From a virus (Duplodnaviria; Heunggongvirae; Uroviricota; Caudoviricetes), in the IMG/VR virus record IMGVR_UViG_2609460219_000006: a stretch of DNA of 5,655 nt; one strand, written 5' to 3'. Each line of letters begins with the position of its first letter. Position 1 is the stretch's first letter. Under the pieces are notes generated by a model. That model saw nothing but the letters and a program-made list of their open reading frames with translations. It searched no databases and was not told the DNA's origin. This document shows positions 62 through 5,473 of this stretch, piece after piece. Made by a program: the position numbers and the translations under genes.

Positions 62-805
62 ATGACAGAGACAGAATCAGCGATTCTGGCGCACGCCCGG
101 CGATGTGCGCCAGCGGAGTCGTGCGGCTTCGTGGTGAGAACGTCGGAAGGGGAAAGATATTTTCCCTGCGTGAATATCTCCGGTGAGCCGGAGGATTATT
201 TCCGGATGTCGCCGGAGGACTGGCTGCGGGCAGAGATGCAGGGTGAGATTGTGGCGCTGGTCCACAGTCATCCCGGTGGTCTGCCCTGGCTGAGTGAGGC
301 CGATCGGCGGCTGCAGGTGCAGAGTGATTTGCCGTGGTGGCTGGTCTGTCGGGGAGCGATTCACAAGTTCAGCTGTGTGCCGCATCTTACCGGACGGCGC
401 TTTGAGCACGGGGTGACGGACTGTTACACGCTGTTCCGGGATGCTTATCATCTGGCGGGGATTGAGATGCCGGATTTTCATCGCGGGGATGACTGGTGGC
501 GTCACGGTCAGAATCTCTATCTTGACAATATGGAGGCGACTGGTTTTTACCGTGTCGCACTGACAGAGGCGCAGCCTGGCGACGTGCTGCTGTGCTGCTT
601 TGGTTCATCGGTGCCGAATCATGCCGCCATTTACTGTGGTGACGGCGAGCTGCTGCACCATATTCCTGAACAACTGAGCAAACGAGAGAGGTATACCGAC
701 AAATGGCAGCGACGCACACACTCCCTCTGGCGTCACCGGGCATGGCGCGCATCTGCCTTTACGGGGATTTACAACGATTTGGCCGCCGCATCGACCTTCG
801 TGTGA
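62..805 (+). CDS. K: Tail tip assembly protein K: N-terminal JAB/MPN (JAMM) metalloprotease-like domain plus C-terminal NlpC/P60 cysteine peptidase domain
   Basis: 247-codon ORF. The JAMM motif H-x-H-x7-S-x2-D is readable as HSHPGGLPWLSEAD (nt 263-304), with Glu residues upstream. An NlpC/P60-like Cys-His-His triad is readable (Cys in TDCYTLF at nt 422-424, His in PNHAAIY, His in LLHHIP). The translation matches my recollection of lambda gpK. The classical 199-aa annotation corresponds to the internal ATG at 206, which has a GGAGG about 11 nt upstream; the ATG at 62 has no obvious Shine-Dalgarno but lies 5 nt after the L stop, suggesting translational coupling. The 3' end overlaps I by 103 nt in another frame. 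Confidence 0.85.
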   Translation: MTETESAILAHARRCAPAESCGFVVRTSEGERYFPCVNISGEPEDYFRMSPEDWLRAEMQGEIVALVHSHPGGLPWLSEADRRLQVQSDLPWWLVCRGAIHKFSCVPHLTGRRFEHGVTDCYTLFRDAYHLAGIEMPDFHRGDDWWRHGQNLYLDNMEATGFYRVALTEAQPGDVLLCCFGSSVPNHAAIYCGDGELLHHIPEQLSKRERYTDKWQRRTHSLWRHRAWRASAFTGIYNDLAAASTFV

Positions 806-1350
806 AAACGGGGGCCGAAGCCATCCGGGCGCTGGCCACGCAGCTTCCGTCGTTTCGCCAGAAACTGAATGAAGGCTGGTATCAGGTGCGCATTGCCGGG
901 CGTGATGCAGGCGAAAATGAATTATCTGCCCGTCTTAATGAGCCGCTGGCAAATGGTGCCGTGATCCACATTGTGCCGCGTCTGGCGGGAGCTAAAAGTG
1001 GCGGTGTTTTTCAGGCAGTGCTGGGTGCGGCGCTGATTGCGGTGGCATGGTGGAACCCTGTGGGCTGGCTGGGTGCCGCGGCTGTATCGGGCATGTATGC
1101 GGCAGGGGCCAGTATGATCCTGGGCGGTGTGGCTCAGATGCTGGCACCGAAAGCCAGAACTCCCCGCACACAGACAACGGATAACGGTAAGCAGAACACG
1201 TATTTCTCCTCACTGGATAACATGGTTGCCCAGGGCAATGTTCTGCCTGTTCTGTACGGGGAAATGCGCGTGGGGTCACGTGTGGTTTCTCAGGAGATCA
1301 GCACGGCAGACGAAGGGGATGGTGGTCAGGTTGTGGTGATTGGTCGCTGA
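703..1350 (+). CDS. I: Tail tip assembly protein I: N-terminal ubiquitin-like (beta-grasp) domain, then a Gly/Ala-rich hydrophobic segment and a conserved C-terminal region
   Basis: 215-codon ORF starting MAATHTLPLASPGMARICLYGDLQRFGRR and ending VSQEISTADEGDGGQVVVIGR, matching my recollection of lambda gpI at both ends. A purine-rich GAGAGAGG lies 11-18 nt upstream of the ATG. A Gly-Gly (nt 1000-1005) follows the predicted ubiquitin-like domain. The 5' end overlaps the K 3' end. Confidence 0.9.
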   Translation: MAATHTLPLASPGMARICLYGDLQRFGRRIDLRVKTGAEAIRALATQLPSFRQKLNEGWYQVRIAGRDAGENELSARLNEPLANGAVIHIVPRLAGAKSGGVFQAVLGAALIAVAWWNPVGWLGAAAVSGMYAAGASMILGGVAQMLAPKARTPRTQTTDNGKQNTYFSSLDNMVAQGNVLPVLYGEMRVGSRVVSQEISTADEGDGGQVVVIGR

Positions 1351-1406: not shown

Positions 1407-4808
<3,402 letters not shown>

Positions 4809-4874: not shown

Positions 4875-5473
4875 ATGCGTAAACTTTATGCCGCCATTTT
4901 GTCCGCAGCCATCTGTCTGGCCGTATCCGGTGCGCCTGCATGGGCGTCTGAACATCAGTCCACGCTGAGCGCGGGCTATCTTCATGCCTCGACGAACGTT
5001 CCCGGCAGCGATGATCTGAACGGGATTAACGTGAAATACCGTTATGAGTTTACGGACACACTGGGCTGGTGACGTCATTCAGCTATGCAGGAGACAAGAA
5101 TCGCCAGCTGACCCGTTACAGCGATACCCGCTGGCATGAAGATTCCTTGCGTAACCGCTGGTTCAGCGTGATGGCGGGGCCGTCTGTACGCGTGAATGAA
5201 TGGTTCAGCGCGTATGCGATGGCGGGTGTGGCTTACAGCCGTGTGTCGACTTTCACCGGGGATTATCTCCGCGTAACTGACAACAAGGGGAAAACGCACG
5301 ATGTGCTGACCGGAAGTGATGACGGTCGCCACAGCAACACGTCTCTGGCGTGGGGAGCTGGCGTGCAGTTTAACCCGACCGAATCGGTGGCCATTGATAT
5401 TGCTTATGAAGGCTCCGGCAGTGGTGACTGGCGCACTGACGGGTTCATCATGGGTGTCGGTTATAAATTCTGA
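4875..5473 (+). pseudogene. lom: lom, outer membrane beta-barrel protein of the Ail/Lom/OmpX/PagC family, disrupted by a 1-nt frameshift (or a sequencing error at a G run)
   Basis: ORF 4875-5072 encodes a Sec-type signal peptide (MRKLYAAILSAAICLAVSGAPAWA then SEHQ) and the first beta-strands, ending ...EFTDTLGW*. ORF 5069-5473 (GTG-initiated in the ORF track) continues the same protein in another frame (VTSFSYAGDKNRQLTRYSD...GFIMGVGYKF, with the C-terminal aromatic residue typical of outer membrane barrels). One extra G in the GGG run at 5063-5065 would restore a single frame reading ...TDTLGLVTSFSY.... GAGAGG lies 7 nt upstream of the ATG at 4875. Confidence 0.8.

Follow-up and report, generated by a model that had tools for sequence, protein, structure and literature searches.

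The closest described relative of the gene studied here is gene K of bacteriophage lambda, the product of which is known as gpK or TAPK. The E-x(n)-HxH-x7-S-xx-D motif and the catalytic role of its glutamate were defined by Ambroggio (2003; PMC300881), and the same study listed the JAMM motif of lambda K. Iyer, Burroughs and Aravind (2006; PMC1779556) described TAPK as a JAB domain combined with an NlpC/P60 domain and encoded next to TAPI, a ubiquitin-like protein in which a conserved C-terminal glycine is followed by a second domain, and the JAB domain of TAPK was predicted to cut TAPI after this glycine.

Relatives of the two domains have also been described in other settings. The JAB domain of K has the same fold and the same E...HSH...S..D motif as PfJAMM1 (PDB 5ld9/5lda) and DSY2949 (PDB 2kks). 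Isopeptidases of the PfJAMM1 type cut ubiquitin-like proteins, and K is adjoined by gene I, which encodes a ubiquitin-like sequence ending in Gly-Gly. Unlike in PfJAMM1 and DSY2949, the JAB domain of K shares its polypeptide with a second peptidase domain and is encoded in a phage tail operon, where its activity and its substrate are predicted. The second domain has the fold and the Cys-His-His triad of D,L-endopeptidases of the MEROPS C40 family such as MepS/Spr in E. coli and LytE in B. subtilis.

Here, we analyse gene K in a stretch of 5,655 bases, hereafter the window, which covers the tail-tip end of a lambda-like prophage. The locus has the gene order L-K-I-J-lom and the JAB plus NlpC/P60 architecture in common with lambda, but the K protein of the lambda reference is only 199 residues long, whereas the window contains an intact open reading frame of 247 codons. 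The evidence presented below makes it very likely that the functional gene product is the 247-residue protein with two domains, translated from the first ATG, and that the 199-residue K is an artefact of annotation.

Gene K and its neighbours

Genes L, K and I are located on the plus strand, and of L the window holds the last codons. The stop codon of L (TAA, 54-56), up to which L is annotated in near-identical prophages, is followed by the 5-nt spacer ATCCC (57-61) and by gene K (62-805), with the start codon ATG at 62-64 and the stop codon TGA at 803-805, the same coordinates as assigned by PGAP to the copy in NIST0056. Gene I, recognised by the Pfam family Lambda_tail_I, ends at 1350 and may start at 703, 742 or 802, so that its first codons lie over the 3' end of K, read in a different frame. 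It is followed by gene J (1410-4808; 1132 amino acids) and by a lom-like gene. On the minus strand, open reading frames at 77-505 and 387-752 were also seen over K.

Over its whole length, the window is matched best by a prophage carried by E. coli strain 7.1994/NIST0056 (99.6% identity), in which K is identical. The window does not represent lambda itself; across the full 247 residues, its K shows 94% identity to the K protein encoded by the lambda prophage of E. coli K-12 J53, and it matches phrog_30 with an E-value of 7e-164. The location between L and I/J and the close identity to lambda K are those of a lambda-type tail tip assembly protein, and the region 62-805 is thus an ordinary gene K for the assembly of the tail tip, in a lambda-like prophage of E. 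coli.

The JAB domain and the first 48 residues

The preliminary description of this locus, made from the sequence alone, had reported the JAMM motif HSHPGGLPWLSEAD at residues 68-81 of the 247-codon frame and had pointed to a second candidate start, the ATG at 206-208 (Met49). It argued that this later start would leave only about 19 residues before the first histidine and would remove the glutamate-containing half of the JAB fold. The coordinates are all correct, Met49 and His68 are 19 residues apart, and the glutamate in question is Glu19, encoded by GAG at 116-118 and present in the long form only. With the zinc-site residues H68-S69-H70, S78 and D81 (263-304), Glu19 makes the JAMM motif complete in the 247-residue form, whereas the 199-residue form lacks the glutamate.

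Searches with domain profiles gave a consistent picture. The Pfam family Prok-JAB (PF14464; cut-off 25 bits) matches residues 4-98 of the 247-residue form with 53 bits (E=3.7e-14) over profile positions 4-103 of 114, whereas the match to the 199-residue form is confined to profile positions 63-103 and, with 22.7 bits, falls below the cut-off. The NMR structure 2kks, a stand-alone JAB domain, aligns with residues 7-106 of K (phmmer, E=9e-6), and the K sequence PAESCG is placed on PNEACG of 2kks, which brings Glu19 onto the glutamate of the motif. Moreover, the 48-residue N-terminal fragment on its own matches JAB families of phage tails with E-values of about 1e-22. The peptides AILAHAR and CAPAESCGFVVR belong to this part of the protein.

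Structure prediction had been proposed in the preliminary description as one way to decide whether residues 1-48 belong to the JAB fold, and the model places them inside it. The AlphaFold2 model of K, based on an alignment of 49 sequences, has a pLDDT of 96.1 and a pTM of 0.90. The first 48 residues, with pLDDT values of 96-98, form a helix (3-15) and two strands (21-27 and 30-36), and are followed in the JAB domain by a helix (51-60), a strand (62-69), a second helix (79-88) and two further strands (92-96 and 99-103). A Foldseek search of the PDB with the model identified, for its first half, PfJAMM1 (5ld9) over 109 columns with a target TM-score of 0.66, as well as 2kks, AMSH, Rpn11 and CSN5, all with a probability of 1.00. 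Only about 57 residues of the JAB domain are located downstream of Met49, and the match to PfJAMM1 over 109 columns therefore needs the first 48 residues. In a separate fold search against BFVD, many JAB and NlpC/P60 tail proteins of phages were observed.

Taken together, the profile, the 2kks alignment, the predicted model and the fold search delimit a JAB/MPN domain at approximately residues 1-105 (62-376). The 247-residue form combines a complete motif, a profile score above the threshold and an MPN fold, as in JAB/MPN+ proteins. A complete JAB/MPN domain is thus obtained only with the long start, as the preliminary description had stated, and the 247-residue form is the likely functional product.

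The second domain is unaffected by the choice of start codon. The Pfam family NLPC_P60 (PF00877; cut-off 23 bits) matches with 47.9 bits (E=1.4e-12) over the entire profile (positions 1-105 of 105), and is complete in both forms of K. For both Pfam families, the E-values are far below what chance would produce. The domain covers residues 111-224 (392-733), or about 108-225, and its structural matches are MepS/Spr, LytE and the Acd autolysins, with target TM-scores of 0.6-0.68. The catalytic triad consists of C121 (422-424), H187 (620-622) and H199 (656-658), and is indeed intact, as had been noted previously. The profile score, the triad and the MepS/Spr-like fold are those of an NlpC/P60 (C40) papain-like peptidase.

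Conservation among homologues

When 1.84 billion cluster representatives were scanned in full, 2,868 relatives of K were retrieved. Distant full-length relatives (36-50% identity, 230-260 amino acids) align with the query from residues 3-10, which adds to the case for the longer start. Among 49 homologues with 33-59% identity, the residues of both active sites are strongly conserved. In the JAB domain, there is no variation at H68, H70 and D81, and conservation reaches at least 90% at S69 and S78. In the NlpC/P60 domain, H187 and H199 likewise do not vary, and at C121 conservation is again at least 90%. The segment upstream of Met49 is likewise conserved in these homologues, with G22 and N38 invariant and P17, E19, C21 and F47 conserved to at least 90%. 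In a wider set of 161 homologues of 225-265 amino acids, position 19 is a glutamate in 153 of the 154 that could be aligned there.

The substitution pattern points in the same direction, albeit on a small sample. The pN/pS ratio over codons 2-48 was 0.32 among 84 close relatives, compared to 0.15 for the rest of the gene, a comparison that is based on just 26 variable sites, of which 8, 5 and 13 fall in the first, second and third codon position, respectively. Judged from these few sites, the pattern is consistent with coding in the K frame, although selection among close relatives looks weaker on these codons than on the remainder of the gene, which speaks against the long form.

A base missing from the lambda reference

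The later ATG had been called the classically annotated start in the preliminary description. This is true of the 199-residue lambda annotation, but the window is not lambda, and in the lambda reference there is no choice between two starts in one frame. In J02459/NC_001416, L ends at 14127 and K is annotated at 14276-14875, leaving a gap of 148 nt, and the encoded protein (AAA96551 / NP_040598) is 199 residues long. Judging by the open reading frames of J02459, the K frame does not continue upstream of the annotated ATG for long; it is open only from position 958 of the locus, with the ATG at 976.

The difference comes down to one nucleotide. The lambda reference lacks one G after position 14266, where it reads GGAGGC-TAT as compared to GGAGGCGTAT with the base, so that positions 14262-14270 read GGAGGCTAT in the reference. 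In an alignment of the region, the reference sequence GGAGGC-TATTTCCGTATG is opposed to GGAGGCGTATTTCCGTATG in mEp460, lambda PV340536, lambda KT232076, lambda imm21 and DE3. With the G in place, an open reading frame of 247 codons begins at 14133, at a distance of 5 nt from L. If the G is left out, the JAB domain is split into a 76-codon open reading frame (14133-14363), which covers Prok-JAB positions 3-41 with 22.6 bits, and the annotated K, which covers positions 63-103 with 22.7 bits. Hence, the missing G accounts for the length of 199 residues of K in the lambda reference. Its absence puts codons 1-47 in another frame, and the first in-frame ATG preceded by GGAGG was then chosen as the start.

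The reference version of the junction is very rare. Over positions 14133-14400, full identity to the reference is confined to J02459, NC_001416, OR474059.1 and OR974322.1. A 36-mer across the reference junction was searched for in IMG/VR, 241 million metagenome records and 185,579 species-representative genomes and matched none of them, whereas the form with the extra G had at least 120 matches in IMG/VR alone. Furthermore, none of the 10,394 copies of the segment in 5,426 complete E. coli genomes was 100% identical to the reference, and the closest copies reached 99.6% over 269 nt, which corresponds to one extra base. On these comparisons of sequences, the gap in the lambda reference is probably a base that was missed in 1982.

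It is also conceivable that the G is truly absent from the sequenced stock, lambda cI857 ind1 Sam7, as a private frameshift mutation. K would then be produced in two pieces or in the short form only, lambda would be viable with a split K, and laboratory growth would not depend on the JAB half. We consider this unlikely. Identity to the reference in two additional records, one of which (OR974322.1) dates from 2022, could be taken in favor of the frameshift, but OR474059.1 is flagged UNVERIFIED and is unannotated, and the 2022 "isolate" mirrors RefSeq lambda in its L and K coordinates and product names over the stretch examined. A laboratory frameshift would have a precedent in lambda PaPa, which according to record notes carries another one in stf. 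Nevertheless, the nine other sequenced records that match the reference at 100% across the PaPa stf frameshift (HK629, HK630, DE3, DN1, lambda imm434, 4W, E26, CJLB-4 and PV340536) all carry the G in K, and a genuine mutation is also contradicted by the absence of the reference junction from the viral, metagenome and genome contig collections searched and of 100% matches from the E. coli copies. In a search of full-text literature, we found no paper stating that the lambda reference is wrong at K, which accords with a real frameshift. The record LC730321, which was considered as a proxy for the sequenced strain, also has the extra G when compared directly to J02459, but the two sequences disagree at 15 sites, one of them an extra C in the stf region (20833), and LC730321 was set aside as a different lineage that is not decisive.

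Nor does it seem that the reference frame could be restored during translation, by a programmed -1 frameshift of the kind used in lambda G/GT. The two frames overlap only at positions 958-976 of the locus, where there is no slippery heptamer of the form X XXY YYZ, and a programmed frameshift is unlikely for this reason. The sequence TTTCCCC in lambda, which is TTTTCCC in the relatives, lies upstream of an in-frame TGA (955-957) and is therefore unable to rescue the frame. The lack of a slippery site also weighs against a real frameshift in the sequenced stock.

Translation starts and coupling to L

The preliminary description had stated that the ATG at 62 is located 5 nt after the L stop codon with no Shine-Dalgarno sequence, and that GGAGG precedes the ATG at 206. 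Calculated duplex energies bear out both statements: the value for pairing with the anti-Shine-Dalgarno sequence was +0.7 kcal/mol upstream of ATG62, as compared to -9.5 kcal/mol for the GGAGG at 190-194, the pairing of which equals in strength that at the real starts of the genes I, J and lom. Among unique viral loci with an identifiable L-like open reading frame, the stop codon of the latter was located between 8 nt inside K (-8) and 11 nt ahead of the K start (+11) in 45 of 50. Translational coupling in phage late operons usually goes along with such a tight spacing of stop and start codons.

We propose that translation begins at ATG62 in spite of the missing Shine-Dalgarno sequence, and that ribosomes that have finished L would re-initiate there. 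Translational coupling is the most likely mechanism given the spacing and the duplex energies, with the spacer at 57-61 as the presumed site of termination and re-initiation. The gene would then have one main product of 247 residues, with a predicted JAB/MPN zinc metalloprotease domain at the N-terminus and a predicted NlpC/P60 cysteine peptidase domain at the C-terminus.

The strong duplex upstream of ATG206 could instead be read as a sign of two isoforms, the 247-residue K and a 199-residue protein with an NlpC/P60 domain and a non-functional JAB remnant, in analogy with the nested pairs C/Nu3 and S107/S105 of lambda. In line with this reading, Met49 is retained in 12 of 13 aligned homologues with at least 90% identity, which represent the lambda clade, and phages in which K consists of an NlpC/P60 domain only do exist (PMC1779556). 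In a nested-start pair, however, the internal start would be expected to be conserved among the homologues, and this is not the case for Met49. Of 47 aligned relatives with 70-89% identity, 29 have Ile, Leu or Val at position 49, as do 77 of 91 homologues with less than 50% identity (Ile 61, Leu 11 and Val 5, as compared to Met 11). At the level of DNA, an ATG was present at the expected N-terminus of K in 65 unique loci of viral contigs, and the codon equivalent to Met49 was no start codon in 63 of these. The GGAGG falls inside the Pro-Glu codons of a G-E-P-E stretch, and the short form would retain an incomplete JAB fold of about 57 residues. Besides, the 11 nt that separate the GGAGG from ATG206 (190-208 in all) are longer than the usual optimum. 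The apparent invariance of the GGAGG and ATG206 in 84 genes of the lambda clade was discarded as circular, most of these loci having been retrieved with the same sequence.

We thus regard the production of two isoforms as quite improbable. The earlier suggestion that both forms may be made or that the long form may be the functional one is upheld in its second part, and its first part finds little support because Met49 is replaced by Ile, Leu or Val in most relatives. In a more specific version, which we judge to be very improbable, the GGAGG and ATG206 of the lambda clade would drive the synthesis of an NlpC/P60-only protein, K', beside full-length K, with separate jobs at the tail tip. If so, the JAB domain could for example cut the ubiquitin-like domain off gpI, while the C40 domain cuts gpH into gpH* and gpHC, a cut for which the protease is still unknown (PMC12617516). 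Finally, that the 199-residue protein from ATG206 is the sole product and positions 62-205 an untranslated spacer, as implied by the annotations of J02459, NC_001416, DE3, HK630 and lambda imm21, by the presence of a Shine-Dalgarno sequence before ATG206 and not before ATG62, and by several large 199-residue clusters in public gene calls, is scarcely credible, given that the first third of the JAB domain, which is conserved and includes the catalytic glutamate, is encoded by this supposed spacer, that the frame is open and homologous down to about 33% identity with no start at position 49 there, and that the short annotations of DE3 and HK630 seem to be inherited from the gapped record.

Discussion

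Our analysis favors a single long K protein, and the history of the annotations offers an explanation for the coexistence of two lengths in the databases. K is annotated with 247 residues in the prophages of J53 and NIST0056 processed with PGAP, in the RefSeq entry of mEp460, and in PhiR55_1, O276 and lambda PV340536, and the name given by PGAP in the NIST0056 prophage is "C40 family peptidase". Intact open reading frames are annotated with 199 residues in DE3, HK630 and lambda imm21, and with 211 residues in lambda KT232076. The short K genes of DE3 and HK630 carry the notes "similar to lambdap19" and "similar to phage lambda protein", which suggests that their start codons were inherited from the record with the 1-nt gap. 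Both lengths are abundant among public gene calls, with clusters of 9,427, 12,883 and 6,975 members for 247 residues, and of 2,207, 2,159, 1,684 and 4,936 members for 199 residues. Gene callers that reward a ribosome binding site probably favor the 199-residue start. This start is a legacy artefact that is still copied onto intact genes. It has also entered the literature, in that a survey and review from 2020 took gpK to be 199 residues long and reported just the peptidase domain, at residues 52-182 (PMC7291167).

With regard to function, the full-length protein should be considered together with its neighbour. In the window, gene I encodes a ubiquitin-like domain and a C-terminal plug domain, and the sequence ...PRLAGAKSGG is found at the end of the Lambda_tail_I domain. 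It is predicted that the JAB domain of K cuts the ubiquitin-like domain of gpI after this Gly-Gly. In lambda virions, gpI was resolved only from residue 134/135 onwards (PMC10721106, PMC12617516), which is compatible with removal of the ubiquitin-like part, although it provides no proof of it.

The protein gpK itself was not found in lambda virions by mass spectrometry (PMC10721106). Likewise, PA0639/PyoF8 of the F-type pyocins, which is described as a homologue of gpK, is absent from mature particles (bioRxiv 10.64898/2026.02.24.707460; PMC13455828), and deletion of PA0639 resulted in tip-less tubes (bioRxiv 10.64898/2026.02.24.707460). Based on these studies, K may act in the assembly of the tail tip without being kept in the virion. 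The absence of gpK from lambda virions makes a role as a tail lysin that cuts the cell wall doubtful, and we find a role as an assembly protease more likely.

The combination of a JAB and an NlpC/P60 domain in K has been known since 2003 and 2006, and a length of 247 residues is the standard annotation outside the lambda reference. The implications of our findings are therefore to a large extent a matter of curation, in that the most used phage reference (J02459/NC_001416) still carries a K gene that is truncated by a 1-nt gap. The consequences are nevertheless also experimental. K proteins that are cloned or tested according to the reference coordinates lack the catalytic glutamate and a third of the JAB fold, and the same truncation would affect tests of the proposed processing of the ubiquitin-like gpI by K.

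A single G is absent from the K gene of the lambda reference genome at position 14266/14267 of J02459/NC_001416 (966/967 in the reference locus numbering), a site that lies outside the window. The other lambda and lambdoid K sequences under comparison carry this G. Because of this missing nucleotide, the JAB domain of K is divided between two reading frames in the lambda reference, and an apparent "gap" of 148 nt separates L from K. In the window, residues 1-76 of K (62-289) match the PHROG family phrog_7305 from end to end; this family comprises 76 positions and carries the function label "unknown".

The choice of start codon in gene I, the tail gene located 3' of K (window 703-1350, plus strand), represents the same type of problem as in K, with ATG703, ATG742 and GTG802 as the candidates. 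A start of the GTG802 type, which overlaps the K stop codon by 4 nt, has been annotated in the related phages and prophages mEp460, PhiR55_1, lambda PV340536 and J53. This form of the protein covers only positions 26-83 of the profile for the ubiquitin-like domain, Lambda_tail_I (52.9 bits), whereas the ATG742 and ATG703 forms both cover positions 2-83 (about 84 bits). Judging from these profile matches, the beginning of the ubiquitin-like domain is therefore probably lost in the short annotations. If gene I starts at ATG703, the last 34 codons of K overlap with the first codons of I in a different frame over 103 nt (window 703-805), and the K/I overlap is annotated likewise in lambda.

Comparison with the NIST0056 prophage of E. 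coli, which is 99.6% identical over the window, revealed that 17 of the 22 substitutions are concentrated in 190 nt of the host-specificity gene J (window 2628-2817), a segment that on sequence grounds looks like a small recombination patch. Further downstream, a lom-like outer-membrane gene (window 4875-5473) is split into ORFs of 65 and 134 amino acids by the loss of one nucleotide from a stretch of Gs at about position 5062, which reads GGG in the window and GGGG in the NIST0056 prophage, where an intact Ail/Lom protein of 199 amino acids is annotated. The broken gene is either a pseudogene or the product of a homopolymer sequencing error.

The lambda tape-measure protein gpH is cut into gpH* and gpHC by a protease stated to be not known (PMC12617516). 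Given its two peptidase domains and its absence from virions, K is a candidate for this protease.
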